Assembly: GCA_017443235.1 (NCBI GenBank)
Contig: JAFSOV010000004.1
Span: 974-64,973, forward strand
Source of the DNA: Alphaproteobacteria bacterium
GTDB taxonomy: Bacteria > Pseudomonadota > Alphaproteobacteria > Rs-D84
DNA length: 64,000 nt
Direction: 5' to 3'
Below, piece by piece: positions 9,410 to 61,164 of the stretch; position 1 is the first letter of the stretch, and each line of letters begins with the position of its first letter. The position numbers and the translations under genes are program-made. The notes beneath the pieces were generated by a model that was given only the letters and a program-made list of their open reading frames with translations, was not told the origin of the DNA and did not search any database.

Positions 9410-9660
9410 TTGCCTTGTTGTTGTCTTTTCGTTTAACATCGATATGAGCCAAATGGGAATTTGGTTCGGGGCTGTGGTAGGCCCACGCTAGTTCGGTGCA
9501 ATGCATCGTAATCCATTGGATTCTCATGTTTTTGCACCGTCGTAATGTCCCCGACTGTGGTCGGGGTGCGGGTGGCGTATATCAAAAGGTCATCTGGATC
9601 GTTAACTAGCGTGATTTACCAACACCCCGACCGTCAATTCCCCTTTGACGGTTTCTTTAT
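9410..9660 (+). promoter_or_regulatory. type I structured leader, copy A (promoter, ~200-nt RNA, terminator-like hairpin)
   Basis: TTGCCT-18-TAACAT promoter. Shares TTGGTTCGGGGCTGT..GCCCA..TTCGGTGCA and a compensated long-range helix with 32424-32680. Ends with ACCGTCAA-loop-TTGACGGT plus a T-rich tail. Confidence 0.55.
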
Positions 9661-24218: not shown

Positions 24219-24462
24219 AGGGGTGGCGCCGAATGGCGACGGGGTAGTTGCCTGATAATAAAAAATTCCAGAAAGTTTGTATTTTTCCACATATTTTCTT
24301 TCCATAAGAACTGTCATTCCGGACTTGGTCCGGAACAGGGTCTATAAACCTGTGACGAAGCAAAGTTCTCCTCCCTTGGAGGAGTACGGCCCAGCGGGCC
24401 GGGAGGTGGGGGGAATTTATATCTTTTTTACCCCCACCCCGTCGCCGTTCGGCGCCACCCCT
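24219..24462. repeat. MITE-like element with 26-bp terminal inverted repeats
   Basis: AGGGGTGGCGCCGAATGGCGACGGGG (24219-24244) matches the reverse complement of 24437-24462 at 25 of 26 positions. The interior is homologous to 42150-42225. Confidence 0.6.
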
Positions 24463-24671
24463 CCGGTCATCACCCACAAAAAACTGTGTTTTTTGTGGGG
24501 CCCGATGGAGGGGAACATAGAGCACACTGGTCAAAATAAATGTACCTTTTTGTCCACCATTTTTTTCACATATCCCGATTCAGTAAAATCAATGACTTAC
24601 AAAATCAGTAGGGTGGTCAATTTAAAGGTACCTTTTTGCTACACTATAAAGCGAGGAATAAAGGAGAACAT

Positions 24672-27795: not shown

Positions 27796-28589
27796 TGTCT
27801 ATTGTAATAAACCCGATTTCACCCGTCGCATTTACGGTATTTGGATTGCCGATACGGTGGTATGCCTTGGCGTATATTGCGGCGTTCGTGGTCGGGTATT
27901 TTTTATTCCGCACCTTTGCACGCCGCCCCGATAGTGGCCTTGATATGTCGCGTCACGAATTGGACGATTTGTTTTCGTGGATAATATTGGGTGTGATAAT
28001 CGGCGGGCGATTGGGATATGTACTGTTTTATAACCTGCCGTTCTTTATATCGCACCCGTTGGAAATTTTTGCTGTATGGCACGGCGGGATGAGTTTTCAT
28101 GGGGGATTGGCTGGTGTGGTTGCGGCAACGTTTTTATTCACACGTTCATGGTCGCGGGGGCTGCATGTATTGGATTTAATATCGGTTGTGACGCCGATAG
28201 GACTATTTTTTGGTCGTGTTGCGAATTTTATAAATATGGAAATTATGGGTCGGCCCACAGATTCAAGTATTGGCGTATTTTTTAATGGCGTGTCCGATGT
28301 GCCACGACACGCAAGTCCATTGTACGAGGCCGCAACCGAAGGCCTGTTGTTGGCTATAATAATGCTGGGGCTGTATCGATACACAAAATTGCGCAAATAC
28401 CCGGGTGCACTGTGTGGGGCGATGGCGATGTTCTATGCGGTGTTCCGTATTATATGTGAACAGTTTCGTGCACCCGATGCCCAGATTGGATTCTTGACTT
28501 CGTGGGGTTTAACCATGGGCGGGTTGCTGTCGGGGGTGCTGTTTCTATGCGGCGCGGGGCTGTTTTTTGCGGCGATACGTCGCAGATAA
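27795..28589 (+). CDS. lgt: prolipoprotein diacylglyceryl transferase
   Basis: HGGLAG and GRVANFINMEIMGRPT signature; polytopic membrane protein. Confidence 0.9.
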   Translation: MSIVINPISPVAFTVFGLPIRWYALAYIAAFVVGYFLFRTFARRPDSGLDMSRHELDDLFSWIILGVIIGGRLGYVLFYNLPFFISHPLEIFAVWHGGMSFHGGLAGVVAATFLFTRSWSRGLHVLDLISVVTPIGLFFGRVANFINMEIMGRPTDSSIGVFFNGVSDVPRHASPLYEAATEGLLLAIIMLGLYRYTKLRKYPGALCGAMAMFYAVFRIICEQFRAPDAQIGFLTSWGLTMGGLLSGVLFLCGAGLFFAAIRRR

Positions 28590-28724
28590 TTGTGTTGTTG
28601 GTTTAACCCCGACCATTTTGCAAGACAATAAATAAACCACCGCAGACAATTCGACCAGGTCCGGTTCATATGCCGGATTTTTCCTAAAAAAGCCGCGAAC
28701 ATCATCCAATAATTTCATCGTCAT
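28545..28724 (-). CDS. possible 59-aa ORF downstream of leader II copy a
   Basis: ATG with AAGGAA upstream. Overlaps the lgt 3' end convergently. No homology recognised. Confidence 0.3.
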   Translation of the reverse strand: MTMKLLDDVRGFFRKNPAYEPDLVELSAVVYLLSCKMVGVKPTTQLSATYRRKKQPRAA

Positions 28725-28744
28725 TTTGATTCCTTTTTTTGTTA

Positions 28745-28953
28745 AAAAAGAAACCACCCGAAATAAATTCAAAGTGGTTGGAGTCTTAACGACAATCAAG
28801 CGAATTGCTGTGCTTATTCAGTATATTCACACACTCCAACCAGTGGTTGGAGATTTTTGTGTCCCTCCGGACACGCCTGACATGGGCGTTAAGACCCACA
28901 GACGGAACGCCCGTCTGTGATTTCATAATAACATTTTATATGCGAAAAGGCAA
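28745..28953 (-). promoter_or_regulatory. type II (CTCCAACC) leader/sRNA module, copy a
   Basis: On the minus strand: TTGCCT-17-TATTAT, hairpin CAGACGG/CCGTCTG, CTCCAACC-AGT-GGTTGGAG hairpin, a second CTCCAACC overlapping the terminator AACCAC..GTGGTT, then a T-run. Confidence 0.6.
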
Positions 28954-29020: not shown

Positions 29021-29097
29021 GGGGTGTTAGCTCAGCTGGTTAGAGCGTCTGCCTGTCACGCAGAAGGTCGAGGGTTCGAGCCCCTTACATCCCGCCA
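29021..29097 (+). tRNA. tRNA-Asp (GUC)
   Basis: GGGGTGTTAGCTCAGCTGGTTAGAGC..CTGTCAC..GGTTCGAGCCCCTTACATCCCGCCA cloverleaf. Confidence 0.92.
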
Positions 29098-29116
29098 GTT
29101 TTTTTGTGTCAGTTCC

Positions 29117-29191
29117 GGCCCCATCGTCTAATGGTTAGGACACCGCCCTTTCAAGGCGAGAATCCCGGTTCAAATCCGAGTGGGGCTGCCA
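29117..29191 (+). tRNA. tRNA-Glu (UUC)
   Basis: GGCCCCATCGTCTAATGGTTAGGACACCGCCCTTTCAAGGCG..TTCAAATCC..TGGGGCTGCCA. One mismatch each in the anticodon stem and the T stem. Confidence 0.85.
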
Positions 29192-30737
29192 AATCAGAGT
29201 CACCGTCCATTTGGGCGGTGTTTTCGTTGAAAATCTGCACTGTTGAGGCGGTTCGAAATCCTGATTCTTGGTGATAGACAGGTTTTTCAGTAAAAATCAA
29301 CCTAACAAGACGTCGTTTTTGCGAAATTGTGCCGCGTGACCATAGTAAATCAGGCCTTTTGAAAAATTCGCGTCCGTTTTCAATGGCGGTTCGAAATTTT
29401 TCTGCGACATTGGATGCAGTGTTATTTTCCAATTGTTTTTCCAATGCTTGCTTGTTGGCATTTAGTTCTTTAATTTGCCCCTGGTATATGTTCGCCAAAT
29501 CTTTATCACCACTTGCCAGAGCATTCATAACCAGCGCAGTGATTCCCGATATTTGTTGTTTTATTTTTGTTATTTTATCGTGCGTCTTGTTGTTTGCGCT
29601 GGTTATTTCGTTTTCCCTAATTTTGCCTATCTTTGTAATCATGGCACAGCATAAATCAAGAAACTTGTCTGTCGCTTTTAATGTGCGCAGTTTTTCCACA
29701 AAAGCATCTTCAATAAGGTTCCTGCGTATGGATTTTTTGTGAAACACGCATTCTTTGTTATGGCACCTGTAATATGGATGCATACACCCCCTTGTTCCGC
29801 TTTTCGCGTAATAGCCGGTTAATGGATGCCCACAATGCTCACAAAACACCTCGTGTCGCAATGGAAAATCATCGGCAATAGTGGATTTATATGATTTATA
29901 ACCCCCTTTGTCTAATCTGGCTTGAACAGCATCGAACAAATCCATTGGTATCAGTTTAACCATTTTCCATTCTTGTAGTGGTATTTCCCATTTGTCATAA
30001 GCAAACACACCAGTATAAACCACATTGTGCAGGATATCATTTGCGGCTGTATCGGTTATTCTGCGACCGTTCCATGCATCATGCGAATTTAAGAAATCTG
30101 CGACCGCATGTTTGGTTGCCAATTCGCCACTGGCATATTTGGCGAATGCTTGCTGTATCAATGTGGCCTTTGGTTCGTCTGGCACCAAAATAACCTTGTT
30201 ATGTTCATCTTTTTGCCTTTTTAACCCCAATGGCGGATTTAGTGGGTAATAACCAAGTGTCATTAAAGAGCGCATAGAGGCTCTGGTCTTTTCTGATAGT
30301 TCGTCACTAAACCGTCGTGCATTTAGTATGTCTATTCCGCGCACAAAACGACCTGTGGCATTGTTCTGTGATTTTCCGGCCACGACCGTTAATAGTTCTA
30401 TATCGTATTTTATAACCAAGTTTTCAAACCGGCTAAACACCTCTAAATTGCGCGATAATCGCGACATATCAAAGAACAAGACCCTTATTCGCTTGTTTTT
30501 CTGTTCTTGGGTTATATATTCCATCATCATGTCAAGCCCCGGGCGGTCAGTTTTCCACCCAGATACCCCGTCTTCATAAAAGAACTTATCAATTATAAAT
30601 CCGTTGTTTTTCGCATAATCCAAACATGCCTGTTTTTGTGACATGATGGTTTCTTTCTTTGCTTGTTTGTCTGATGAAACACGGCACAGACACAATGTTT
30701 CAATTGGTTTTTCTTTGGTTGGTATATATTTTTTCAT
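29151..30737 (-). CDS. large serine recombinase
   Basis: 528 aa. Resolvase catalytic block LCRVSSDKQ and YEDGVSG, recombinase domain, Zn-ribbon CEHCGH..C..C, coiled-coil tail. The 3' end runs into tRNA-Glu. Confidence 0.85.
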   Translation of the reverse strand: MKKYIPTKEKPIETLCLCRVSSDKQAKKETIMSQKQACLDYAKNNGFIIDKFFYEDGVSGWKTDRPGLDMMMEYITQEQKNKRIRVLFFDMSRLSRNLEVFSRFENLVIKYDIELLTVVAGKSQNNATGRFVRGIDILNARRFSDELSEKTRASMRSLMTLGYYPLNPPLGLKRQKDEHNKVILVPDEPKATLIQQAFAKYASGELATKHAVADFLNSHDAWNGRRITDTAANDILHNVVYTGVFAYDKWEIPLQEWKMVKLIPMDLFDAVQARLDKGGYKSYKSTIADDFPLRHEVFCEHCGHPLTGYYAKSGTRGCMHPYYRCHNKECVFHKKSIRRNLIEDAFVEKLRTLKATDKFLDLCCAMITKIGKIRENEITSANNKTHDKITKIKQQISGITALVMNALASGDKDLANIYQGQIKELNANKQALEKQLENNTASNVAEKFRTAIENGREFFKRPDLLWSRGTISQKRRLVRLIFTEKPVYHQESGFRTASTVQIFNENTAQMDGDSDLAAPLGFEPGFSP

Positions 30738-30787
30738 ATTTTTTCCTTTAAGTTTTGTCCCGGATGCCGAAACACCCGGGGGTTAGT

Positions 30788-30913
30788 TTATATTTGGTCG
30801 CATATTATCCACGCATACTCTTCAATCAGTTGCAGGATTTCCTGTAATTGTTCTATTGGCATGTGCGTAGAACCTAAAATGCGCTTTGCCTCAGTGATTG
30901 ACAATAAAGCCAT
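30788..30913 (-). CDS. possible small HTH protein (excisionase/RDF candidate)
   Basis: 41-aa ORF MALLSITEAKRILGSTH... directly upstream of the recombinase. Weak RBS. Confidence 0.25.
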   Translation of the reverse strand: MALLSITEAKRILGSTHMPIEQLQEILQLIEEYAWIICDQI

Positions 30914-31039
30914 CGCAACACCTTTTTGGTTGCGTTTCGGCTCTGGTTTGTCCAGTCACTAAAACAATGTTGTTCATTTGCGCTGGTAATAATTTCGATT
31001 TGTTCGATGGTTATTTTCAGCATGTTTATATGGTGTATT

Positions 31040-31813
31040 TTATTCATACAAGACCTCCGTTGATTTGACCTCGTTAAAAACTTCGCGTCCATTTTGGTAT
31101 TTGATGGTGCGTTCCCCATAGTTTGGGCTTGTGCCACCATCTGATACTGTATGGATGCGGTTTGCTGTTTTATCAATATTCAGTTTTTTAACCCCGGGGT
31201 CATATAGTTTGCTGGCAATGTTTGTTGGTATACCCACAAATTCGCCTATGTCAGATGCGTTGATTTTTAGCACCACATCGCATTCGTTGAATATCTGCAT
31301 AGTATTCAGTATGATATGTGAATATGTGGTTATATCCGGGTCTGTAATGATGGTGTCCAGGTCGCGTTTCAAAGCCAATGTTATCCGATTTTCGCCGTCT
31401 ATAACCAAATATGGTGTTTTATCGGCATCCGGTTGTTCCAATGCTAAATTGCGACATAGTAATGTGGCGAATTCTAACACTGAACAGTTATCATACATTG
31501 GCAAATTCAATGCGTCTCGTATTTGTCTCAATGCAGACAAAGAAAGACCGCGCTTTTTTAGCACGGTCAGTACACTTAACATCGCGGCATCACGAATGGA
31601 CATTGCCTGTCCGGGTTCCACATGAATCAGCTCCCGGCTCGCCCATTCTTTTAACACATGTTGTATGTTGCCCGACAAGAAGTCGCCGATGCCAGATATA
31701 TGCCTATTAAGATTGACCAAATCAATCTGTTTGGCACCGGTTGCAAACGCATCAAAAAATGCGTTGGTTTCTTGTGATATTTTTTTGATATTTATATAAT
31801 TTGAATTTTGCAT
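31040..31813 (-). CDS. hypothetical island protein
   Basis: ATG at 31813 with RBS AAGGAG. 257 aa, no recognised motif. Confidence 0.55.
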   Translation of the reverse strand: MQNSNYINIKKISQETNAFFDAFATGAKQIDLVNLNRHISGIGDFLSGNIQHVLKEWASRELIHVEPGQAMSIRDAAMLSVLTVLKKRGLSLSALRQIRDALNLPMYDNCSVLEFATLLCRNLALEQPDADKTPYLVIDGENRITLALKRDLDTIITDPDITTYSHIILNTMQIFNECDVVLKINASDIGEFVGIPTNIASKLYDPGVKKLNIDKTANRIHTVSDGGTSPNYGERTIKYQNGREVFNEVKSTEVLYE

Positions 31814-31989
31814 GAGTTTTACTCCTTTGGTTTTCGCAAAATTCGCAACACTTGCCCACCACAAGTCATTTTGTGTCAGGATTGTTGCTCTCGTCCACTT
31901 GTCGAGTCAAGTCCGCAGACAAAAAAAGACAAAATGAACACAATAAAATTGCGCGTGGGGGATAACACATGTATGAATCGTAAAAGGGA

Positions 31990-32124
31990 AATCATAAAGG
32001 GTCGTCATAAACCCGAATCATAAAAAAATGCTCATAAAGAGCACGAGCATAATATAGTCACAATGGATAGAATGGGGGCTAATAAGAAATCAATTAACGA
32101 ATCATAAAACCCGAATCATAAATT
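31990..32124. repeat. iteron-like cluster of (A/G)TCATAAA motifs
   Basis: At least six copies. They include the long direct repeat TCATAAA(A)CCCGAATCATAAA at 32005-32024 and 32102-32122. Confidence 0.6.
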
Positions 32125-32423
32125 GTCATCTTAAAATCCTCGCAACTCCTTTGTGACTGTGGTTTTGAACGATTTTTATTGTAGTTAAAAAACGATAAAA
32201 TGTCAAGTCCTTGATGCATATTTTTTGTTTTTGTCAGTTTTCCGGTATGTTGACGTTGTTGCATTAAAGTATGAACGATTCGTAAACGGTGTTATTTTGC
32301 CTCGACATGCGATGTCTTGGTTTTGAAATAGTCAGTATGCCGAAAAACAAAACATTGCGACGTCGGGCACGACAATGCGATTGTCGCATATCAAATATAA
32401 AACCAGTGCAATTAACATATATT

Positions 32424-32680
32424 TTGACTTTTTTCCTGTTTGCGTGTAAAGTTTTTCATGAATCCAAGAGATTGGGTTCGGGGCTGTCACAAGCCCATCT
32501 CATTCGGTGCATAAGCATCGTTAAATTGTTAGCATGGCGCGTTTGCGCCGGCTTTCCCCGCATGGTCGGGGAGTCGTGGTTATACAATAGGGGTAACCCG
32601 AAACCCACGAAATCAATAATGAGATGATTGTGAACTCCCCGGCCGTCAATCTTTTGGCGGTCGATTTTATTTAACCAAAA
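32424..32680 (+). promoter_or_regulatory. type I structured leader, copy B
   Basis: TTGACT-17-TAAAGT promoter. Same conserved blocks as 9410-9660. Helix CATCTCATT/AATGAGATG replaces ACGCTAGTT/AACTAGCGT. Terminator-like CCGTCAA..TTGGCGG plus T-rich tail. Confidence 0.55.
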
Positions 32681-32688
32681 GGGAAAAT

Positions 32689-33333
32689 ATGAAAAAATTA
32701 TTGTGTGCTTTGGGCTTGCTATGTGTGTTGTGTGCATGTGACCGAAACGAAAACAAAAAGCAACAATCACCACTAGTAAAAAGTGTAATAACTTTTCGGG
32801 CTTTTCATCAGGATGTTTGCAAATGTGTTCTTGGGAATATGCCGACATTTGTTAAGACACTTAATTCAGACGGGTATAATAATATCAATGCTTTTTGTTT
32901 TTGGGGTGCATATTTTTGTTCAAACCAAAAATCAGACGAAACCATTATGGCCGCTGCTAAAGTCATTGACGGTTTAGACAGTTTCCAATGCGCCGATCCG
33001 CACTTTAATGAAAGGTTTGTTGCGGCCAGTGAAAAGGCAGGGGTCGATGCTTTGTGTCCCGCTATATGGCAACAAGATAATGTTTTGTATTTAAGCAAAT
33101 TGGCGCATTTAACAAATTCGTGTCAGTCAACATTTGGTAAAAGCGAAATCGAATGTTTGTGTGCGGTTGATAATTATATGTCGCATTTGTCTGAAGCCGA
33201 ATTCAAAGCATTAAAAAGTTATGGGCAATTCTTTCCTGGTTATGGGTGGATGGCGAATACCAAAGCAAAACAACAAATGACCGTCAGCATAATGACAAAA
33301 ATGCGAAATGCGGTTGCGGCATGTGCAGAATAA
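32689..33333 (+). CDS. cysteine-rich lipoprotein, unknown function
   Basis: Signal peptide with lipobox VLCAC. 214 aa. Confidence 0.6.
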   Translation: MKKLLCALGLLCVLCACDRNENKKQQSPLVKSVITFRAFHQDVCKCVLGNMPTFVKTLNSDGYNNINAFCFWGAYFCSNQKSDETIMAAAKVIDGLDSFQCADPHFNERFVAASEKAGVDALCPAIWQQDNVLYLSKLAHLTNSCQSTFGKSEIECLCAVDNYMSHLSEAEFKALKSYGQFFPGYGWMANTKAKQQMTVSIMTKMRNAVAACAE

Positions 33334-33350
33334 AAACAAAGGAGTAAAAA

Positions 33351-34154
33351 ATGAAAAAATATATTTTGTTCACAATAGGTTCCGTCTCATTGGCGGCATG
33401 TCAGTTTGACGGGATTAGCCCAGAGCAATGCAATGATTATGTTAATTCACTAACAAGCTCTGGAGATATAATTCAAGTTTTAGATACATATATTGAATAT
33501 AGAGATTGGTGGAAATCTTCTAATGATGCTAAAACTCAACAATCTCTGCAAAGAAGTTGTTGGAACGATTTTTTAAGAAGACAAGATATAGATTATACAT
33601 GTTTGGATAAAGACAATGTTTCAGATGAATGTATTTTATATCGTCGAAATAATAAATACGAATCAGAATTTAATTTTTACGATTTTACAAAGTTTTTATC
33701 GCAAGATAGTTATATAAAAAATGAAACAGATTTTAAGATGGCTCTAGAATACTATGAAATAAACATAAGGAAATGTGAAGCACTTATTGAAAAAACCAGT
33801 GTAGAGAAAGAAGATTGTGTAAATAATATCAAAGACGATTTGCGTAATTTTTCTAAACATGGGATGTTGCTGTGTAGAAACAGTCTAAAAAAAGAATATA
33901 GAGCCATGTTAAAAGAGCAAGGTCAGTGGTATAGGTGGGCAATAAACCATGATCCGTATGGGTTTTATAAAGAATGGGTCGCGATGACCGGTATTTCGGG
34001 ATATGAAGCCCAAGTATCCATGTATCAACCCGTATATAGCAAAAGTTCCGCCGCAGAAAGGGTAAAAGAAGAAATTGAAAGCTGGGGTAAAGAACATTTG
34101 TGCAAAACTACAAACTATTTGACAGATCTAAAAACATTAGGCTTTTATATGTGA
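33351..34154 (+). CDS. lipoprotein, unknown function
   Basis: Signal peptide with lipobox SLAAC, RBS AAGGAG. Very AT-rich. Confidence 0.6.
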   Translation: MKKYILFTIGSVSLAACQFDGISPEQCNDYVNSLTSSGDIIQVLDTYIEYRDWWKSSNDAKTQQSLQRSCWNDFLRRQDIDYTCLDKDNVSDECILYRRNNKYESEFNFYDFTKFLSQDSYIKNETDFKMALEYYEINIRKCEALIEKTSVEKEDCVNNIKDDLRNFSKHGMLLCRNSLKKEYRAMLKEQGQWYRWAINHDPYGFYKEWVAMTGISGYEAQVSMYQPVYSKSSAAERVKEEIESWGKEHLCKTTNYLTDLKTLGFYM

Positions 34155-34187
34155 CGGAACTGTATAACGGAAAAACAGGAGACAGAA

Positions 34188-34292
34188 ATGGAAAAGATTA
34201 TACTAAAAACACTGAAACGGGTATTAGTTTTGATTGGGTTGATATTACCATTGATAATAATGATAGCGATGATAAACGCATTACTTAAATAA
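34188..34292 (+). CDS. possible 34-aa hydrophobic peptide
   Basis: RBS AGGAGA. MEKIILKTLKRVLVLIGLILPLIIMIAMINALLK is a single TM helix. Confidence 0.3.
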   Translation: MEKIILKTLKRVLVLIGLILPLIIMIAMINALLK

Positions 34293-34497
34293 TGAGGCCG
34301 CCCATGATAAAAACACTAGTAGTATTATCAATGATGCAAGGGAATCTTAATATAGCCCCTTCGTTAAGAGAAATGGAACACCAATTCGTTGGGTATGGAT
34401 GCACGGATATGTATGTATTTAGAACAATTTACCATTACCCATACATATATCCTATCAGTTTATTTAATTTAGGCCACTAAACAAAAAGGAGAAAACA

Positions 34498-34944
34498 ATG
34501 TTGCAAACTGAACGCTCGTGTATGCGCGAAACCGAAAGAACTTTATTGCGTTCTAAATTGGTATCATTGGCGGACGACATTGATTTTACAGGTCAAAAGC
34601 CGCACAAGGCACAGTTTAGGGGCAGATTATTTGAATTTACCCGTGCAAATGGTTGGAAACGGTTGTATGAACAAATAGTTGGTGAATTATACAAGATAAA
34701 TCCAAAACTTTTACAAGATTCAGCCGATGGACAAACTGAATTCATCATATCAGATGAACCGGTTTTATGGAGCGTAGGCAGTCGAGGACCAGCGCAGACA
34801 TATGATGATTCATGGTGGACACCCATAGATGATAATATTTATATATACACAAAACATAATACAAACAAGAAAATCGAACTTATGCGCCGTTTTTTTGACA
34901 TGTATGGCATAGAGTATGCAGAATTAAAAATTTTATTGTATTAA
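34498..34944 (+). CDS. hypothetical protein, upstream partner of the nuclease gene
   Basis: 148-aa ORF with RBS AAGGAGAA. Ends 8 nt before the next gene. Confidence 0.55.
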   Translation: MLQTERSCMRETERTLLRSKLVSLADDIDFTGQKPHKAQFRGRLFEFTRANGWKRLYEQIVGELYKINPKLLQDSADGQTEFIISDEPVLWSVGSRGPAQTYDDSWWTPIDDNIYIYTKHNTNKKIELMRRFFDMYGIEYAELKILLY

Positions 34945-34952
34945 AGGGGAAA

Positions 34953-35882
34953 ATGATGGGGGTTATTGTTTTGATACTGGTTTTAATTGGTATATTTGTT
35001 TGGATATTGATGGTAGAAGAAAAAAAGAAAGGGATATATATACAACAAGAGCAAATGGTAAAGGAGGAATTATTAAAAGAATTTAGGCTTTCATATGTCG
35101 AACATATAATAGATATAACCAGAAAATATCAAGATGTATTAATAGATAAATGGGACCAAAAAACTTACATAAATGAATGGGGCGATCTTGATGCGGCTGA
35201 TTTTTTTAAAGAACTTGAGTATTTTATATTTAACAAAATTCGAAGAATATATGATTATACAAAGTCACCAGAATATAAAAAATTAAAGGAAAACGCTGTG
35301 TCTGAATATGAGTATTTTGCTTTTGATATAGTGCCGAATGAAAGCAATATACCGGAATGTGCGGGCTACGACGGTGAACGAATTAACTATCATTTTCATT
35401 TTACTATGAAAGATAATCAGGAAAAACGATATTTGGCTTCTTGGTATGATACAACCGTTGATATAATATGTGTTTTTATAGACACTATTAGATGGCTTGA
35501 ATCTGTTGTTGGCACAAAAAAGAAAATAACTATAAGTTTACAGTCCAAAAATCCATTGGATTATGAAAAACAAATTGCCAACAAGTTAAAACAATCTGGG
35601 TTCAATGCGCATGCAACAAAAGGTTCGGGCGATCAGGGGGCAGATGTTCTGGCAGATAAGAATGGTGTAAAGTTTGCTATACAGTGCAAAATGTATTCAA
35701 AGCCGGTTGGTAATAAAGCCGTTCAAGAGGCCAACACCGCCCGTGATTTTTACAAGTGTGATTATGCGGTTGTTGTCACTAATGCGGGATATACAAAATC
35801 TGCACGCCAAGCCGCAAATGCGTGCAATGTTATCCTGTTGAACGAAAACCAATTGGATAAATTAGACAATTATATAGAATAA
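34953..35882 (+). CDS. membrane-anchored protein with a C-terminal Mrr-type restriction endonuclease domain
   Basis: N-terminal TM helix. The C-terminal block GSGDQGADVLADKNGVKFAIQCKMYSKPVGNKAVQE..VVVTNAGYT is typical of Mrr_cat (D..D..QCK). Confidence 0.7.
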   Translation: MMGVIVLILVLIGIFVWILMVEEKKKGIYIQQEQMVKEELLKEFRLSYVEHIIDITRKYQDVLIDKWDQKTYINEWGDLDAADFFKELEYFIFNKIRRIYDYTKSPEYKKLKENAVSEYEYFAFDIVPNESNIPECAGYDGERINYHFHFTMKDNQEKRYLASWYDTTVDIICVFIDTIRWLESVVGTKKKITISLQSKNPLDYEKQIANKLKQSGFNAHATKGSGDQGADVLADKNGVKFAIQCKMYSKPVGNKAVQEANTARDFYKCDYAVVVTNAGYTKSARQAANACNVILLNENQLDKLDNYIE

Positions 35883-36511
35883 CTGTACTTATCCCCCCCA
35901 CCCCCCTATGGGGGTAGTGCTTGAATTGTGCGATATATATCAAAGAATGCTTTTCTTTACATGGCATGCCATTAAGTTATGGTTCACGTTATGGGTATTA
36001 TCTTAACCTTTATATCCCATCTATACCCTTGTTATCATCCCTGGTTAGAATATCGTTCTGGATTATATTTATTTGGTTTTGTGGGGTTTGCGTTTGTGTG
36101 TGTTTGTATCGGGCATAAAGTGCAAAATCAACATCCATTAGGGATTCTGCGATATTTATAGTTTGCTCAATAAACCGGTTCAAATTTGTAAGGTCTTGGG
36201 CTGCCAAAATAAAAAGACCACCATTTTGGTGGTCGTTTTATTTTGTTCAACCCCCGAATTTGAACCGCGGTTCACAATGAGTAAGCGAAAACGAACGAAG
36301 CGAAGTTTGAGCGCCCGGGCCCCGCAAAATTGTAAAATTTTGTGGGTGGGCTTACGAATGCCCCGCAGGCGCAAGCCGAGGGAAATCCGAGTGGGACAAT
36401 TACGAAAATCTTAAAAAATCGACAGATGGAGATTTTTTTGATTTTCGTTATTGGGGATGTCCGTTCTTGACGAGTTTTTATAGATTTTTATTATTGTGTA
36501 TTGAGGAAGCG

Positions 36512-36526
36512 GTGGGGCTGCCAAAT
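36512..36526 (+). repeat. attR-like copy of the tRNA-Glu 3' end
   Basis: GTGGGGCTGCCAAAT is identical to 29180-29194. Shorter fragments: GGGCTGCCAAA at 36198-36208 and AAATCCGAGTGGG at 36383-36395. Confidence 0.65.
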
Positions 36527-36698
36527 TTAGTTAATAAAAAACGCCGAATGGCGTTTTTTATTTAGGAAATTTGAGCATCGCGCCGTAGCTACCCACGTTT
36601 TCCGAACCCAAACCACATAAATCGATTTTTTATTCAACGCGATTAAGCACCTGCGAAGGCGGATGCCAAGAATTCAAACCGACCTTTTTGGTCGGTTT

Positions 36699-37055
36699 TT
36701 ATTTTTTCTCTGTCAGATCAAATGATGCGGTTATCAATTGTTTTACGTTTTTTTGTGGGACTGTGCCGTCCAGAACAATGGATACCCAATTTGCCTTGCT
36801 CATATGATACGCCGGCAGAATACCCGGAATGTCACGCAAAAACCCAATGTCATCAATCGAACATTTTACATTTATAATGTCCATGTTCCCATCGCCAGAT
36901 AGTTTCAAAATTTTTCGTGGCACAGTCATTATAATTGCAAACCATTTTCGATTATCGTGATGGCGAAAGACACAATAAGTCGGGTACCGCCGCCACAGGT
37001 ATTCCGGTTTTGCCCCATACGTCTTGAACATAAAATCAATGATATCTTGTTTCAT
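36699..37055 (-). CDS. MmcQ/YjbR-family protein
   Basis: 118 aa. The pattern PEYLWRRYPTYCVFRHHDNRKWFAI..NVKC is typical of YjbR. Confidence 0.65.
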   Translation of the reverse strand: MKQDIIDFMFKTYGAKPEYLWRRYPTYCVFRHHDNRKWFAIIMTVPRKILKLSGDGNMDIINVKCSIDDIGFLRDIPGILPAYHMSKANWVSIVLDGTVPQKNVKQLITASFDLTEKK

Positions 37056-38080
37056 TATTTCATGTTTGCTTTCATAAATGATTCAATCTTGTCAAACGGT
37101 ATCACATCCATTTTATAATACAGGTCTGTGTGGTTGGCACCTGGGATTATCAATAATTCCTTGTTATCGCCGGTCAGTTTTTTATATGCATCTTCACTAA
37201 AATAACGGCTGTGTGCATTTTCGCCATGTATCATCAAGACCGCACTTTTAATTGTGTCGGCATATTCCAATATTGGCATCGTTATCAAAGATAAATTTGA
37301 TGTCGCGTTCCATCCCCGCTGGGATCCAACAGAACGTTTATGGTATCCCAATGGTGTTTTATAAAAGTTTACATAGTCACGAACAAACTGTGGTGTGTCG
37401 TCTGTCAAATCTTCTGGGTTTGGTAATGGTGCAGATTTTGCGATTTTACCAGATTTGGCATCCGCGGTTCTTTGATTATTCATTTCAACACGCACGGCAT
37501 ATAATTCTTCGGCAGACATAGAATCATTATACCCGTGTGCAGAAACGCGCGTCATATCGTACATTGTTGATGTGACGGTGGCACGAACACGTGTATCCAT
37601 GGCGGCCGCATTCAATGCAAAACCACCAAATCCGCAAATACCAATCATACCGATTTTGTTTTCATCGACAAATGGCAGTGTTACCAAATAATCAATTGCC
37701 GCAGAAAAATCTTCTGTATTGATATCAGGGGACGCAACATCACGAATTTTACCACCACTTTCGCCGGTAAATGATGGGTCAAAAGCCAATGTTATAAATC
37801 CACGAGATGCCATTTCCTGGGCATAACGACCCGATACTTGTTCTTTGACCGCACCAAATGGCCCGGATACTGCGATTGCCGGCATTTTGTCGGCGGGTTT
37901 ATTTTTTGGCATATACAAATCGCCGATCAATTCAACCCCATAACGATTTGTAAAGTGAACTTTGTGTGAGATTACGTCCGGATTCTTGGCAAATGTTTTA
38001 TCCCATTTGTTGGGCGCAACAAGGAAATACCCAAATATTCCCAATATTGCCACGATTGCGATTATGATTGCTGTTTTCAT
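37055..38080 (-). CDS. alpha/beta hydrolase with Cys nucleophile elbow (dienelactone-hydrolase-like)
   Basis: N-terminal TM anchor, GICGFGG (GxCxG) elbow, C-terminal HTD/His region. Confidence 0.65.
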   Translation of the reverse strand: MKTAIIIAIVAILGIFGYFLVAPNKWDKTFAKNPDVISHKVHFTNRYGVELIGDLYMPKNKPADKMPAIAVSGPFGAVKEQVSGRYAQEMASRGFITLAFDPSFTGESGGKIRDVASPDINTEDFSAAIDYLVTLPFVDENKIGMIGICGFGGFALNAAAMDTRVRATVTSTMYDMTRVSAHGYNDSMSAEELYAVRVEMNNQRTADAKSGKIAKSAPLPNPEDLTDDTPQFVRDYVNFYKTPLGYHKRSVGSQRGWNATSNLSLITMPILEYADTIKSAVLMIHGENAHSRYFSEDAYKKLTGDNKELLIIPGANHTDLYYKMDVIPFDKIESFMKANMK

Positions 38081-38207
38081 TTTTGGCTCCTTTCAATCGC
38101 ATAGTAGCCGTTACAGTAATTTTTCACAAGCAAAAAAATCTTTTCGTGGGACCCGATGCCACAGCGAGATAAATAAAAACACCACCCGAATGGGTGGTCG
38201 GTATTAT

Positions 38208-38552
38208 CTATTTAGTTTTTTTATTTTGTGCCAATAACTCGGTACGTCTTGCATTGCACGCACGTACAAAATCTCTGTAATCTTTTGGTGTTATAACAAA
38301 CCGATAGAATTCATCACCATTGTTTGCAATTGAATAAACATTATGCGTGTACGAATATACCGCATAGATATCACCAACAACCCATTTTATATGACGTTTA
38401 CGAAACGGACCATCGGTTTCATCTTCTATGGCATCCATCTGTTTGGCCACCGTAGATACTGAGATTAGATTCATCAAATTTTGAACACGTGCCTGATATT
38501 GCTGTTTAATTCTTACTTCGTTTTGTTTTTCCCTTGATGATTTTTTTGCCAT
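38208..38552 (-). CDS. hypothetical protein
   Basis: 114-aa ORF followed by the terminator hairpin CCACCC-GAAT-GGGTGG. Confidence 0.5.
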   Translation of the reverse strand: MAKKSSREKQNEVRIKQQYQARVQNLMNLISVSTVAKQMDAIEDETDGPFRKRHIKWVVGDIYAVYSYTHNVYSIANNGDEFYRFVITPKDYRDFVRACNARRTELLAQNKKTK

Positions 38553-50604: not shown

Positions 50605-51516
50605 TTACTTTTCTTCATCTGGTAATCTGCCAAACGGAAGGAAATTTATACCACCCGTTATGTTGGCATGTTCCGCGCCACCAATTTGATAATTTCCCAA
50701 TGTTACTATCCACATTAAATTACCGTTATCATCAAATGCACCCCCACCGGAATTACCACTCCAGCCTTGGCAGCCTGTAAACTGACTTTTTGAATTTTGG
50801 GAACATTTAGAAACTTTTAATAAATTGTCTTCAAAACGCCGACGATTGTTCAAAATAAACATTTCTACGCCGTTGCCACGCACCCCACCATCCGCCGTAT
50901 GAACGTCTTGGACCTTAACAACATTCTCGATAAACTTTATATAATCATCCTTAATTTCTTGTATTTCTTGATCACTCATTATTTTTAATGCACCATAACC
51001 AATAATCCGGACATCTTTGGCACCACGGGCAAAAGAATCGTTTATTTTTACATACGCACCATCTAAAACCTCTTTTACACCATCGGCTGAATTTGACCCG
51101 ATTGTTAGCAATCTGTACTTTGCCCAATCCCCATTTGGGTTCGTTCCATCGGCATAATTAAAATTGCCCTTTTTAACCAACCGTGCATTAAGTTCGCGAC
51201 CATTTGGCAACCTGATTCTTACCAAATCATCAATAATATTATCGTGATTAGAATCTACACAATGTTTGGCGGTATATAAAAAATATCCCACATCGTCTTG
51301 TGTTAGCCCTTGTCTTTTTACTATGGTCCCCGAACAATGTGTGCGTTCATTGGCAAAAACAAATGTCGCAACCGCATTATATGGTTTCTCTTGTTTTTGT
51401 TCATCGGTAACATAGCACCGTTTATCAATCGTATACAATTCAGGATTGGTACACGCATCATCAGCCCAAGAAATTAACGGTACGCACAATAAAAACCATA
51501 CGATGATTTGTTTCAT
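50605..51516 (-). CDS. secreted trypsin-like (S1) serine protease
   Basis: Signal peptide, His block TAKHCV, Ser block GWSGNSGGGAF. Confidence 0.75.
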   Translation of the reverse strand: MKQIIVWFLLCVPLISWADDACTNPELYTIDKRCYVTDEQKQEKPYNAVATFVFANERTHCSGTIVKRQGLTQDDVGYFLYTAKHCVDSNHDNIIDDLVRIRLPNGRELNARLVKKGNFNYADGTNPNGDWAKYRLLTIGSNSADGVKEVLDGAYVKINDSFARGAKDVRIIGYGALKIMSDQEIQEIKDDYIKFIENVVKVQDVHTADGGVRGNGVEMFILNNRRRFEDNLLKVSKCSQNSKSQFTGCQGWSGNSGGGAFDDNGNLMWIVTLGNYQIGGAEHANITGGINFLPFGRLPDEEK

Positions 51517-51518
51517 AA

Positions 51519-52220
51519 TTATTCGATATTTGGTTTACAATCATATCCATAATCACTAAGGCTTAATGCAATGTCCGTGATCCTCCTATCTCTGATCTGA
51601 ATATTCCCATGCGTACCAGAAAAAACCTGTTCCGAATATCCGTTGGTAACAGATGTCGTGGATTCACAATTAACAATAGGAACCAAACAACAAACATTAT
51701 AAAATTTATTTTTGCCGCCCTTGCTGGCCGGTCGGCTTACAACACATCTATTATCTGTTTTGGAACAATCTATATTTTTGCTTGTTCCCGGAATAATAGT
51801 ATAGCCGTCATAACTATGTTCATTGCCACATTTACTTCTCGCCAGCCTTTCCATATATGATTGATGACACTGGGAATGTTCTTTAACACCGGTTTCTACC
51901 ACAATCTTGGCCGAAGACATTGCGACATACCAAACATATTGTAAATTTCTGTCATAATCCAAATCAGGCCAACTCTTACAATCCTCCAGTTCTACTGAAT
52001 GCCACATTTGTTTATCACCGTCCGTATAAGGCAAGAGTAGATCTATTTCGCTTACATTCGCATAGTTAACAATTTTTTTACACAACACGATCGCCGTTGC
52101 CAAATCAATCTTGCCGGCAATGTAATCCGCATTCATAGATTCTATATTGAATGGCGGATTGTCACAATACGCGTTTTGGACATAAAACAAACAGGACAAA
52201 ATTATTAAAAAATTCTTCAT
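51519..52220 (-). CDS. secreted cysteine-rich protein, unknown function
   Basis: Start at MKNFLIILSCLF with RBS AGGAGAG. Signal peptide. Confidence 0.55.
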   Translation of the reverse strand: MKNFLIILSCLFYVQNAYCDNPPFNIESMNADYIAGKIDLATAIVLCKKIVNYANVSEIDLLLPYTDGDKQMWHSVELEDCKSWPDLDYDRNLQYVWYVAMSSAKIVVETGVKEHSQCHQSYMERLARSKCGNEHSYDGYTIIPGTSKNIDCSKTDNRCVVSRPASKGGKNKFYNVCCLVPIVNCESTTSVTNGYSEQVFSGTHGNIQIRDRRITDIALSLSDYGYDCKPNIE

Positions 52221-52230
52221 ATTTTCTCTC

Positions 52231-53199
52231 CTACTGTTGCAAAGCCTCTTCACACATTTCGGCTTGGCGTATCATTTTTTTTGTTAAAGTTATTAGTGAA
52301 ATATTTAACCCCGTCTCTACCAAACCTGTACCAACATTAACCCCCGACATTATGTTGGCCGTCGTATTCAAATTATTTACACTTTGTTTTTCAGATTCTG
52401 TTAAGGCGATTCTTTGTTCCGCATTCATATATTTATTGGAATTGGATGATGCACTGGCCGCTGTGCCAATACCACCAACCACAACGCCTGCGATTGATGT
52501 GCCCATTACACCTTTCATACGTTTTTCTATTTTTTGTGCATCACTGACGTTTATCTGGTTACACCAGGTCTTTACATTATTGATTTTTTTCGCTATTGGA
52601 TTATCCAACGGACTTACACCCGCAGATGTCAATTTGGCCGGCATATCTGACAAAGATTTTATCATTTTATTGCACGCCTCTATATGCTGAATCAAATCAG
52701 ATTGATTTGCGTTTACGCCCGATATTATTGCAGATGCCAAATTTGTGCCGATTGTTCCGGCCATTAAACCGGTGCGCCAATTACCCAATTTTTTAGAGCG
52801 GTCTAATTTGTTCTGTAATTCCGCAATTTCTGCCATCGGGGAAATTACATCGGTATAAAATTGTTCAAGACTCATTGTTTTGATACTTTCCGCAGAGCAA
52901 CCACCTTTTGCGCATATTTGGTCTATCAATGATTCTATTTCCCTTTCTTCGCTTGATTTCGCTATGCCAACGGCCAACGCACCACCGGCTGCAACGGTTC
53001 CAACCCCGGTTACCGCGGTGTTTATTTTTGATACATTTGAAACTTTTGAAATTTCATCGGATAATCCCGAACAAACTATTTTTGTGGCATTAAACAATTC
53101 TGTTGCGTTGTTAACAATATTGTCGCTATCAGAATCTACTTGGCCGAACGACTGGACGGTTATTAAGCCGAATATACACACAACTATAAATTTTTTCAT
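52231..53199 (-). CDS. secreted protein with four glycine-zipper-like hydrophobic segments
   Basis: Signal peptide. Segments TGVGTVAAGGALAVGIA, GLMAGTIGTNLASAIISG, MGTSIAGVVVGGIGTAA and GVNVGTGLVETGL. Confidence 0.6.
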   Translation of the reverse strand: MKKFIVVCIFGLITVQSFGQVDSDSDNIVNNATELFNATKIVCSGLSDEISKVSNVSKINTAVTGVGTVAAGGALAVGIAKSSEEREIESLIDQICAKGGCSAESIKTMSLEQFYTDVISPMAEIAELQNKLDRSKKLGNWRTGLMAGTIGTNLASAIISGVNANQSDLIQHIEACNKMIKSLSDMPAKLTSAGVSPLDNPIAKKINNVKTWCNQINVSDAQKIEKRMKGVMGTSIAGVVVGGIGTAASASSNSNKYMNAEQRIALTESEKQSVNNLNTTANIMSGVNVGTGLVETGLNISLITLTKKMIRQAEMCEEALQQ

Positions 53200-53237: not shown

Positions 53238-53453
53238 ACAAAAAACCACCAGACAAAGCAAGTGGTTGGAGGTTCAGAACTATTATGCTCGGCAAATAGT
53301 GGGCTTATTCAACATATTCACCGCCCTCCAACCCTGCCTTAGGTTGGAGGTATTTTTTGTCCCCGCGGACACCGAACATAACAAGGGTTCTGACACCCAA
53401 CAAAGCAACCGCCCTGTCAATGGTATGTTACACTAAAATTGGATAAAAATCAA
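53238..53453 (-). promoter_or_regulatory. type II (CTCCAACC) leader/sRNA module, copy c
   Basis: On the minus strand: TTGATT-17-TAACAT, CCTCCAACC-loop-GGTTGGAGG hairpin, GAATAT..GAATAAG box, a second CCTCCAACC overlapping the terminator AACCAC..GTGGTT plus T6. Confidence 0.6.
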
Positions 53454-56921: not shown

Positions 56922-56955
56922 ATCGCTCTCCTGTTGGAAACATTATAGCATATTT

Positions 56956-56984
56956 TAGTGATTAGTGTTAGTGGTTAGTGTTAG
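56956..56984. repeat. TAGTG(G/A)T tandem array, copy 3
   Basis: TAGTGAT TAGTGT TAGTGGT TAGTGT TAG, adjacent to a terminator homologous to 24175-24199. Confidence 0.8.
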
Positions 56985-60078: not shown

Positions 60079-60150
60079 AGAATAACCCCTTGGTTTTCAA
60101 TAACGTCGCATTAAGAATACCAAACAATGCAAGCCCACGCAATAGTTTTT

Positions 60151-60181
60151 TAGTGGTTAGTGTTAGTGTTAGTGGTTAGTA
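60151..60181. repeat. TAGTG(G)T tandem array, copy 4
   Basis: TAGTGGT TAGTGT TAGTGT TAGTGGT TAGTA. Confidence 0.8.
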
Positions 60182-60210: not shown

Positions 60211-60431
60211 TTGCATTAAAATTACTTTGATGCTAACATTCACTATGTCGGTGGGTGTTCCGCCGATGGGGTGTGAAGACCCCTTTACATGTGGCCCGTA
60301 TGGGCAAAAAACTCCAACCCCAGGGTTGGAGGGATGCGAATAATATAGGGCCCAGCCCATAAAATAAGCACACAATTTGCATGTAAATTGTCTTCAACCT
60401 CCAACCACTCGAATTTTTCGGTGGTTTTTTA
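60211..60431 (+). promoter_or_regulatory. type II (CTCCAACC) leader/sRNA module, copy d
   Basis: TTGCAT-17-TAACAT, hairpin TCGGTGG/CCGCCGA, GGGGT..ACCCC, CTCCAACC-CCA-GGGTTGGAG, then CCTCCAACCAC overlapping the terminator AACCAC..GTGGTT plus T6. Confidence 0.6.
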
Positions 60432-60480
60432 TTCCCCTTCACACCGTGAAGGGGGGGACCACCGGAGGTGGTGGGGTAGT
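60432..60480. repeat. GC-rich double-hairpin module, variant of 41481-41529
   Basis: CCCCTTCACACCGTGAAGGGGGGGACCACCGGAGGTGGTGGGGTAG. The second stem changes from CCGCG/CGCGG to CCACC/GGTGG. Confidence 0.75.
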
Positions 60481-60537: not shown

Positions 60538-61164
60538 ATGCACAAAAAATTATTACTTGGTTTAATCGGCACAATTATCGCGGGACATGCATTTGCCGAA
60601 ACAACAACGCAAACAATTCCAACGCAAAGTTATGTTGATACAAATTTTCAAACCAAAATCCCGGCGGGTTCATTCGGTGAAAACAATAGTGTTGTTACAT
60701 ACGGAGCAAATGCCGGAGAGGCGCAGGAAAGGTTGATATTACATCCTACAAGAACCTATAATGAAACAACAATAACAGCCTTTCTTCGTGGAGGCCTACT
60801 TTTTGAAGACAGCGCACTTATTCGTTCATATAAAGGTCAATTAGGTGCAACAGATGAACAATACAATAATTCATTATTACCCGCGAAGTATATATCAGAT
60901 GCAATTGGCTCGAAGCAATACGCCATCACCCCAGGCACCACAGGCAGTGTTGCGATATTTAATGGTGCAGATTCGCGGGGCGGTTCACAATTTACCGAAC
61001 GTGCGATATATGACGGTTCGACAACGTATGATTCAACGACCGATGCGAATAAACTTATTACCGCCGGTGCCGTTGACAACAAGCAAAACAAAATGACATG
61101 TACGCGGTGGATTGATAATGCCGATGAAACAGATGAAAATTGTTTGTTATGGCAATTAAATTGA
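60538..61164 (+). CDS. secreted protein, YVD-motif family
   Basis: ATG at 60538 with RBS GGGGAG. Signal peptide ending AGHAFA, then PTQSYVDTNFQTKI. C-terminal C..C block. Confidence 0.65.
   Translation: MHKKLLLGLIGTIIAGHAFAETTTQTIPTQSYVDTNFQTKIPAGSFGENNSVVTYGANAGEAQERLILHPTRTYNETTITAFLRGGLLFEDSALIRSYKGQLGATDEQYNNSLLPAKYISDAIGSKQYAITPGTTGSVAIFNGADSRGGSQFTERAIYDGSTTYDSTTDANKLITAGAVDNKQNKMTCTRWIDNADETDENCLLWQLN

Follow-up and report, generated by a model that had tools for sequence, protein, structure and literature searches.

The window analysed here is a stretch of 64,000 nucleotides (nt) from contig JAFSOV010000004.1 of an Alphaproteobacteria bacterium (GTDB lineage Rs-D84), and the element in question is a structured leader RNA that stands repeatedly before its protein genes. 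A first-pass annotation, made from the sequence alone, had described four units of promoter, leader and terminator. Sequence inspection located all four at the positions it gave, 60211(+), 28745(-), 41784(-) and 53238(-), and all four are real; however, the window total is six, since a covariance model (R1) built on the 3' two-thirds of the unit adds two diverged copies. In the order just given the four are called copies a, b, c and d (the earlier letters were ordered otherwise, with a=28745, b=41784, c=53238 and d=60211), and the added ones are copies e and f. Copies a-d carry CUCCAACC boxes and copies e and f carry boxes of the CCCCGAC type (type 2). The six leaders stand among about 55-60 genes. 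The four repeats are genuine copies of an apparently undescribed family of structured leader RNAs of ~185 nt, a family with at least three box 'alleles'. Their overall identity is only ~65%, and therefore they are not recent duplicates. The supposition that no named family was involved holds: Rfam 15 (4227 models, gathering thresholds) found five tRNAs only in the whole window, and scans of copies a, d and e at permissive E-values gave chance-level matches only (<=18 bits).

Read from 5' to 3', a unit consists of a promoter-like site, the hairpins SL1, SL2 and SL3, an A-rich linker, the hairpin P4 made of box 1 and an antibox, the short stem P5 with its loop, the hairpin SL5, box 2, and a terminator hairpin (Table 1). 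The promoter hexamers were found exactly as quoted in the annotation (TTGCAT-17-TAACAT, TTGCCT-17-TATTAT, TTGCAT-17-TATAAT and TTGATT-17-TAACAT). The other features described recur in all four copies: hairpins at the 5' end, one of GGGG..CCCC, an A-run, a CTCCAACC-loop-GGTTGGAG hairpin (just 5 bp long in copy c), a GAATA..AATAAG box and a second (C)CTCCAACC that continues into a hairpin with a U-tail. How specific are these features? In the window GGTTGGAG and its complement occur 11 times against 0.79 expected, 11/11 inside the four copies, and the composite GGTTGGAG-N4-7-GAATA-N4-25-AATAAG occurs 4 times against 0 expected. R1 scores the four copies at 96-111 bits (b 95.6, c 111.3, d 106.7), copy e at 33.6 bits (E 6.9e-6; 9543-9658) and copy f at 23.6 bits (E 0.0015; 32550-32667). 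With filters off it finds no credible seventh copy in the window, the remainder scoring <=19 bits and resembling ordinary terminators. A sequence-agnostic box/antibox/box search of the window recovered copies a, b, d and e, plus noise. Copies e and f, compared by eye as were all type-2 copies, keep the architecture, the last box again entering a U-tailed hairpin; box 2 of copy e is CCCCGACC.

Does the fold survive comparison with homologues? Two alignments were used: A4, with 83 sequences fitted to the model structure, and A5, a structure-blind MAFFT alignment of 32 full-length copies. On A4, 91.4% of cells are paired and two-sided changes occur at 22/25 pairs, a level reached by 0/500 column shuffles, and sliding the partners lowers pairing to 31-56%. 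On A5 the proportion is 89.8%, against 39-48% with partners slid; per stem it is 85% for SL1, 88% for SL2 and 91% for SL3. The SL2 stem covaries (GC 22, AU 6, GU 3 at one pair on A5), and so do, among the 83 sequences, the P5 stem (98.8% paired; UA 32, GC 29, CG 10 at one pair) and the terminator stem (AU 37 / GC 33 at one pair). The P5 loop GAAUAnnnnGAAUAAG, of 16 nt, is nearly invariant. Upstream of SL1, a TGnTATAAT block stands in one column block at a fixed distance in the 32 homologues of A5. Covariation is seen in each hairpin put forward by the annotation; two reciprocal pseudoknot helices, the 3-5 bp stem closing the GAATA..AATAAG loop and the fifth hairpin, SL5, had been overlooked, as had copies e and f. 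Folded to minimum energy, copies a and d pair their 5' domain with their 3' domain (z-scores -5.2 and -4.4). This extended duplex, considered as the conserved state in place of the pseudoknots, was rejected on two grounds: covariation is present within the stems of SL2 and SL5, and the 5' arm of SL2 changes (GGGG, GAGG, CAGG) with no match to box 2.

The first pseudoknot, PK1, pairs the SL2 loop with the spacer upstream of box 2, which stops 1-2 nt short of it. The partners are UGAAGAC/GUCUUCA in copy a, UCUUAACG/CGUUAAGA in b, CUAGAAAAC/GUUUUCUAG in c and UCAGAAC/GUUCUGA in d, and on A5 its 6 bp are 96.9% paired, with two-sided changes at 6/6 pairs. The second, PK2, pairs the segment just 5' of SL3 with the SL5 loop, as in copy d (UAUGUUCGG/CCGAGCAUA) and in the homologous loci L099 (AAUGUAUCG/CGAUACAUU) and L081 (AACUUGUGG/CCACAAGUU); its register on A5 is only partial. 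An alignment-free 'longest duplex' statistic proved too noisy for both and was replaced by a register-free test on 74 homologues, in which the duplex energy of the 5' window was calculated in a restricted window with its own or with another copy's 3' partner. The cognate mean is -7.21 kcal/mol for PK1, against -3.86 for non-cognate partners, and -6.66 against -3.68 kcal/mol for PK2, and in either case it was reached by 0/5000 permutations. Both pseudoknots are retained, with sequences of their own, in 4/4 type-2 copies examined. They have a common geometry, the classical H-type one, of 5' arm, 2-3 nt, pairing segment and, with no spacer, 3' arm; PK1, with a 2-nt connecting loop, no spacer to the 3' arm and covariation, has the features of an H-type pseudoknot. 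The layout is reciprocal, each hairpin's loop pairing with the strand after the other hairpin, and therefore the four helices should form one compact module beside box 2. PK1 ends one unpaired base before the antibox:box 2 helix described below, so that the two could stack.

The annotation had also proposed that GGUUGGAG(G) can pair with either CUCCAACC, and the comparative data place both pairings under selection. Among the 83 sequences antibox:box 2 is 96.4% paired and antibox:box 1 88.7%, the distal end of box 1 being often wobble-paired or mismatched. The antibox:box 2 helix is a plain 9-bp duplex, and its ninth pair, between the base after GGUUGGAG and the base before box 2, is G-C in 58/60 and U-A/G in 13/15 (Fisher 3e-12; column counts GC 59, UA 8, UG 7). 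Between the ninth antibox base and the base preceding box 1 there is no association (p = 0.17). The ninth pair is thus private to the antibox:box 2 helix and not common to box 1. Whole triples are also replaced together, by CUCCUGACC/GGUCAGGAGG/CCUCCUGACC in loci L064 and L095 and by CCCCGAC/GUCGGGG/CCCCGACC-type boxes in copies e and f and in L036, L047 and L043. It is the conservation of both pairings, the private ninth pair and the joint replacement of triples that place both helices under selection. Box 2 and the base of the terminator stem overlap by AACC, so that antibox:box 2 is to be read as an antiterminator and box 1 as an anti-antiterminator. One strand has two partners and the second pairing takes away part of the terminator stem, as in a three-hairpin attenuator. 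A trans-acting partner bearing GGUUGGAG or CUCCAACC was also looked for and rejected, the 721 kb of related loci containing only 7 stray octamers, of which one lies within a tRNA. The count of GGTTGGAG / CTCCAACC outside leaders (86 loci, 721 kb) is 7 against a rough chance expectation of ~20, and the box octamer may be avoided elsewhere in leader-bearing genomes.

What would such a leader do? We assign a probability of about 0.72 to a cis-acting transcription attenuator (anti-antiterminator/antiterminator/terminator) with a pseudoknotted sensor domain. Each copy would be a self-contained transcription unit with its own promoter, a structured 5' leader of ~185 nt, and an intrinsic terminator 14-45 nt before the start codon. 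The purine-rich antibox (GGUUGGAGG) would first pair with box 1 (CUCCAACC) directly upstream, giving P4, the anti-antiterminator. Box 2 (CCUCCAACC), made ~60 nt later, could oust box 1 and pair with the antibox; this antiterminator would take the AACC at the base of the terminator stem, which is needed to reach the U-tract, and RNA polymerase would read through into the gene. If P4 persisted, box 2 would stay free until the terminator closed, and an RNA of ~185 nt would be released. SL1, SL2, SL3, the P5 loop and SL5 would be folded into the compact reciprocal double pseudoknot, which together with the invariant P5 loop may be the sensor that biases the competition of box 1 and box 2. The analysis shows the structure, the two alternative pairings, the pseudoknots and the placement before genes; that the switch operates in vivo, and that an effector favours one of its states, are the parts of the model that we infer. 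As effector, a small molecule, a protein and an RNA are all conceivable.

Is the choice between the two states a real one? In energy calculations that ignore pseudoknots, P4-enforced and antiterminator-enforced ensembles of a transcript ending at box 2 differ by -0.36 +/- 3.5 kcal/mol; adding the terminator tips the balance by 2.4 kcal/mol towards P4 plus terminator. By these models the choice is energetically balanced at the decision point. All six window copies (6/6) have an intrinsic terminator with a GC-rich stem and a U-tract, at -6.8 to -14 kcal/mol. Within the window P4 is weakest in copy c, which precedes the XRE gene (-5.7 kcal/mol), and strongest in copy d (-18.4), and such differences could set distinct basal read-through levels for each gene. 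They could also simply hard-wire them, if the leader were a static structured 5' untranslated region, that is a constitutive partial terminator, an insulator or a 5' cap structure stabilising the mRNA, which gives accessory genes a fixed low expression. This agrees with the terminator state being the thermodynamic ground state and with no candidate effector having been found; however, a static leader would hardly account for a conserved antiterminator pairing with a private covarying pair, for two states nearly isoenergetic at the decision point, or for the intricacy of a conserved double pseudoknot and a loop of 16 invariant nt beside the switch, and we hold it to be unlikely. As a separate observation, the opposite strand bears terminator-like sites, each formed by the P4 hairpin and, as the T-run after it, the complement of the A-rich linker, at 53325-53350(+), 60312-60331(-) and 41871-41887(+). 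Because of this arrangement the leaders might also stop antisense transcription.

The antibox contains a perfect GGAGG, and some copies have a GUG or UUG start behind it. Could it be the Shine-Dalgarno (SD) site of a short regulatory open reading frame (ORF), whose translation picks the hairpin? Such leader-peptide attenuation was rejected, as there is no conserved leader ORF: 43/73 copies have no start codon 3-12 nt past GGAG, and the 'peptides' are inconsistent in frame and length. Further, the linker varies in length between 4 and 7 nt, some copies have a hairpin inserted into the would-be ORF, and type-2 antiboxes are without GGAGG. It is extremely improbable.

Which genes would the attenuator control? 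The survey of downstream genes covered 93 copies with enough flanking sequence, and 86/93 are followed by an SD site and an ORF on the same strand, which accords with the first-pass view that the unit acts on the gene directly downstream. The gap after the U-tract region has a median of 25 nt (interquartile range 22-33) and is <=45 nt in 77/86, too short to accommodate a further promoter, so that expression of the downstream genes depends on read-through. The module is, as had been proposed, one conserved unit of promoter, leader and terminator. By a crude rule 56/86 downstream products have a signal-peptide-like start, and ~15 are XRE-type helix-turn-helix (HTH) proteins of 65-90 amino acids (aa) like the one after copy c. 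The others have no Pfam family, except the trypsin-like protease in the operon after copy d. Many of the leader-linked secreted proteins bear the motif S/T-x-x-YV(D/E/Q)... just after the signal peptide; carriers are 60538-61164 and 9678-10652 in the window and ORFs in loci L039, L026, L036, L007, L004 and L064, none of which has a Pfam family. They look like a lineage-specific family of surface proteins.

The same survey bears on the other proposal of the annotation, that the copies are paralogous trans-acting small RNAs (sRNAs). They would then be independent genes of ~185 nt whose CCUCC, the 5' half of box 2, is an anti-SD seed, and downstream expression would be incidental read-through. 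Each copy has a promoter-like site of its own and a strong terminator, there are multiple copies with diverged variable helices, and CCUCC is single-stranded in the terminator state. Terminated riboswitch leaders are able to act as sRNAs, e.g. the SAM-II-derived RZ of S. meliloti (PMC9373788). However, this proposal leaves unexplained the covariation of antibox and box 2, whose ninth pair would be useless to a pure sRNA, and the nearly obligatory spacing of 14-45 nt to the start codon; 86/93 copies abut a same-strand ORF that needs read-through, and the type-2 box CCCCGAC holds no anti-SD core. Thus we consider it quite unlikely as the primary role, and sRNA activity could be a secondary function of the terminated product.

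How widely is the leader distributed? An exact-pattern scan of one genome per species gave at least 119 loci, and R1 confirms at least 91 further copies in 60 species-level metagenome-assembled genomes (MAGs); the scan was pattern-restricted, so that these counts are lower bounds and type-2 copies are under-sampled. The confirmed hosts are without exception uncultured Alphaproteobacteria of gut or rumen, which carry the labels Candidatus Enterousia, 'Rickettsiales bacterium' or 'Alphaproteobacteria bacterium', and R1 upheld none of the exact-pattern matches in other phyla. Locus L099, from a Ca. Enterousia sp. MAG, has a near-identical copy d and behind it a protein with the same N-terminus, which places the window in this genus. 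In GTDB, Enterousia is assigned to order Rs-D84; members of this order have genomes of <1 Mb, are without tricarboxylic acid cycle and respiration, and are uncultured organisms of gut and rumen (PMC12306168). The literature found on Enterousia or Rs-D84 describes no RNA elements, and queries with the box strings gave only irrelevant papers. Four leader copies lie in contigs that IMG/VR classes as viral (L137:12083-12195, L147:831-943, L146:8502-8613 and L157:5546-5664); the L137 copy precedes a secreted-protein gene and is beside a PLD-family nuclease and an N6-adenine methyltransferase. Such contigs may represent prophages or mobile islands that belong to the same hosts and carry the host leader.

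Copies in viral contigs, several copies per genome and true intergenic repeats adjoining some of them would also be expected of a repetitive mobile element, similar to repetitive extragenic palindromes or miniature inverted-repeat transposable elements (REP/MITE-like), that spread between genes by duplication and has no function as RNA. Yet copies within a genome are ~65% identical and have kept all helices by compensatory changes, their orientation and distance to the downstream ORF are fixed, and R1 scores of 96-111 bits on the leader strand contrast with <=19 bits for any match to the other strand. This explanation is very improbable.

Several points should nevertheless be set against the attenuator. 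Its promoters, termination and read-through are deduced from sequence. The generic promoter scan was at chance level overall and left the leader promoters unscored, omitting them because their -35 hexamers are weak; the promoter/terminator scan was too strict on -35 hexamers and loop length, and found a terminator only for copy c. The aligned TGnTATAAT block is for this reason the best promoter evidence. The shuffle and permutation controls take no account of phylogeny, and A4 was fitted to the very structure it supports. No candidate effector has emerged, the 7 box octamers outside leaders in 721 kb of related DNA including none that resembles a partner RNA, and the near-invariance of the boxes may mirror the constraint of triple pairing alone and not a trans factor. 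Finally, the local P4 hairpin is the earlier of the two pairings to form, and at full length the terminator state has the minimum energy, so that read-through would need an active or kinetic input.

Table 1. Coordinates of the leader copies, their parts and the genes that follow them in the window
Feature	Position	Strand	Details
Copy a: promoter-like site	60211..60239	+	TTGCAT 60211-60216, 17 nt, TAACAT 60234-60239
Copy a: SL1, TCGGTGG/CCGCCGA	60248..60266	+	A5: 85% of cells paired, two-sided changes at 5/6 pairs
Copy a: SL2, GGGG-ug-UGAAGAC-CCC	60268..60283	+	loop 60274-60280 = PK1a
Copy a: PK2a, UACAUG	60286..60291	+	just 5' of SL3; partner is the SL5 loop
Copy a: SL3, GGCCC-guau-GGGC	60293..60305	+	A5: 91% paired, two-sided changes at 5/5 pairs; SL3 missing from copy c
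Copy a: A-rich linker	60306..60311	+	A4 columns 1-6 mostly A
Copy a: P4, proposed anti-antiterminator hairpin	60312..60332	+	box 1 CUCCAACC 60312-60319; antibox GGUUGGAGG 60324-60332; -14.5 kcal/mol
Copy a: P5, short UGC/GCA stem closing the GAAUA...AAUAAG loop	60335..60370	+	loop with inserted GGGCCCAGCCC hairpin in copy a
Copy a: SL5	60372..60391	+	loop 60380-60385 = PK2b; two-sided changes at 6/6 pairs (83 sequences)
Copy a: PK1b spacer GUCUUCA	60390..60396	+	complement of SL2 loop
Copy a: box 2 CCUCCAACC	60398..60406	+	shares its last four bases with the base of the terminator stem
Copy a: predicted intrinsic terminator, AACCAC...GUGGUU + U-tract	60403..60430	+	-9.6 kcal/mol
Gene after copy a	60538..61164	+	208 aa, signal peptide, SxxYVDT motif, no Pfam family
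Copy b, full unit	28744..28953	-	-35 28948-28953; box 1 28845-28852; antibox 28833-28841; box 2 28776-28784; terminator end 28744
59-aa ORF after copy b	28545-28724	-	
Copy c, full unit without SL3	41783..41970	-	box 1 CUCCACAU 41880-41887 (5 bp with antibox); antibox 41870-41878; box 2 41809-41817
XRE-type 70-aa ORF after copy c	41547-41759	-	
Copy d, full unit	53240..53453	-	box 1 53342-53349; antibox 53325-53333; box 2 53264-53272
Operon after copy d	52231-53199, 51519-52253, 50605-51516		50605-51516 trypsin-like
Copy e, type 2	9410..9658	+	box 1 CCCCGAC 9549-9555; antibox GUCGGGG 9560-9566; box 2 within 9623-9632
Copy e: pseudoknots			PK1 9474-9479 with 9617-9623; PK2 9486-9493 with 9604-9611
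Signal-peptide gene after copy e	9678-10652	+	
Copy f, type 2	32424..32672	+	box 1 UCCCCG 32555-32560; antibox GGUCGGGGA 32564-32572; box 2 UCCCCGGCC 32636-32644
Copy f: pseudoknots			PK1 32487-32492 with 32628-32633; PK2 32497-32504 with 32618-32625
Lipoprotein-like gene after copy f	32689-33333	+	

Other elements lie near the leaders. Tandem arrays of 4-5 heptads TTAGTG(G/A/T) are found at 24139-24169(+), 56955-56984(+), 60150-60180(+) and, in reverse orientation, 42285-42308; one such array is ~30 nt upstream of the -35 hexamer of copy a, and similar 'cactaac/gttagtg' runs precede leader promoters in loci L007, L036, L073, L077, L097, L058 and L011. A DNA-binding regulator could recognise them, and the leader-linked XRE protein is perhaps that regulator, or they could be a plain intergenic repeat. 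A palindromic module, CCCCTTCAC-nnn-GTGAAGGGG followed by a second GC hairpin and GGGGTAGTT, occurs at 60434-60480(+), 42004-42024 and 41482-41502, with a variant at 24206-24250, and looks REP/MITE-like. One copy is inserted after the terminator of leader copy a, before the gene, and accounts for the unusual length of the gap there (106 nt); two flank the XRE cassette of copy c.

The intergenic stretch 24296-24530(+), before a signal-peptide gene (start 24672), is GC-rich and highly structured (-106 kcal/mol, z = -5.0). Its opening is leader-like: an SL1-like hairpin is present, together with CAGG-GUCUAUAAA-CCUG and a hairpin of CUCCUCC-cuu-GGAGGAG, and CCCCUCC...GGAGGGG comes later on. It may be a third, diverged leader type. 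Rfam gave no match on 24100-24700 at permissive E-values, and CTCCTCC..GGAGGAG matches at three other loci, tried as homologues of this type, proved to be a different element. A block at ~29100-40300, with copy f inside it, has a GC content of 35-41% against ~44% elsewhere. It starts right after tRNA-Asp and tRNA-Glu (29021-29191), opens with an ORF (29151-30737(-)) whose N-terminus is serine-recombinase-like, and is probably an integrated island. In another Alphaproteobacteria MAG, locus L110 contains tandem repeats of ~126 nt (~7325-7700(+) and ~270-560(-)), each ending in AAAACACCCC-loop-GGGGGTGTTTT hairpins.

There is a further question, what would the attenuator mean for its hosts? Gene regulation in the reduced, uncultured Rs-D84 bacteria is largely uncharted, and the leader precedes most of the secreted or surface genes seen and a recurrent XRE regulator. 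Such a leader would provide a compact regulon, based on RNA, for dealings with host or partner cells. A bolder scenario, which we regard as tentative and rather doubtful, is that this one fold is the main regulatory device of a lineage with genomes of <1 Mb, either a new riboswitch class or the target of a new RNA-binding antiterminator, that it senses a global signal through the reciprocal double pseudoknot, and that it controls about a tenth of the transcription units, made up of the secretome and small XRE regulators, the box 'alleles' marking sub-regulons. If this were true, the alleles CUCCAACC, CUCCUGACC and CCCCGAC would define separately addressable sub-regulons within one genome. For RNA biology, the family offers a new complex fold, in which two hairpins each loop-pair with the strand following the other, and a clean natural case of strand displacement, with two identical boxes against one antibox. 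About 100 sequences are usable for structure determination, for ligand or protein fishing, and for metatranscriptome mining.

Which known RNA systems does the leader resemble? The cuckoo/CcsR (alpha-r14-type) sRNAs with CCUCCUCCC motifs are likewise present in multiple copies per alphaproteobacterial genome and have C/U-rich anti-SD-like motifs, but they are short and trans-acting with the motif in hairpin loops, whereas the new leader acts in cis, keeps its CUCC in competing stems, has a fixed ORF distance in 86/93 copies and has no Rfam match. An ANTAR-regulated leader, marked by two tandem hairpins with hexanucleotide loops of which the second overlaps the terminator, was considered and rejected, for the P4 loop has 3 to >10 nt and the SL5 loop 5-12 nt with no conserved loop positions, and the element overlapping the terminator is here a long-range helix, not a hairpin. 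T-box leaders are also long and made of many hairpins; there a trans-acting RNA favours the antiterminator over the competing terminator by stabilising it. By analogy they are a possible model if the effector of the new leader is an RNA. Unlike them, the new leader has no Stem I specifier or T-box sequence, gives no match to the Rfam T-box model and precedes genes that are not related to aminoacyl-tRNA.

A riboswitch is another candidate. The annotation had argued that unrelated downstream genes speak against a pathway-specific metabolite riboswitch; they do not speak against a small-molecule riboswitch as such, since riboswitches for second messengers, c-di-GMP-I among them, are found upstream of many unrelated genes. 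The c-di-GMP-I (GEMM) RNAs resemble the leader in that one RNA class precedes many unrelated genes, often of surface or secreted proteins, and so serves a regulon rather than a pathway; the leader fold is unrelated to theirs and has no Rfam match. The SAM-II, preQ1-II and fluoride riboswitches are alike in having a loop that pairs with a downstream strand by the expression platform, with covariation, conserved unpaired nucleotides, a short (2-3 nt) connecting loop and no spacer before the 3' arm. In contrast to them, the leader is far larger (~185 nt), contains two reciprocal pseudoknots and matches no Rfam family. As in a riboswitch fold, a covarying double pseudoknot and the invariant P5 loop lie beside the three-box platform. 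The gene context of secreted proteins and XRE regulators suggests no particular ligand.

A close mechanistic parallel is with the PyrR-controlled attenuators of the Bacillus pyr operon, where an upstream anti-antiterminator sequesters the antiterminator strand and the antiterminator overlaps the 5' arm of the terminator. Both systems have three mutually exclusive hairpins and several copies per genome. The leader differs in having no PyrR-binding motif and no match to the Rfam PyrR model, in a P4 loop that is variable in length and sequence, in downstream genes that form no metabolic pathway, and in its lineage, the Alphaproteobacteria. Its boxes 1 and 2 are the same sequence competing for one antibox, and its putative sensor is a double pseudoknot. 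The mechanistic kind (terminator/antiterminator/anti-antiterminator) is known, while the RNA family appears new and its sensor architecture unusual, apparently serving a regulon in a reduced genome.

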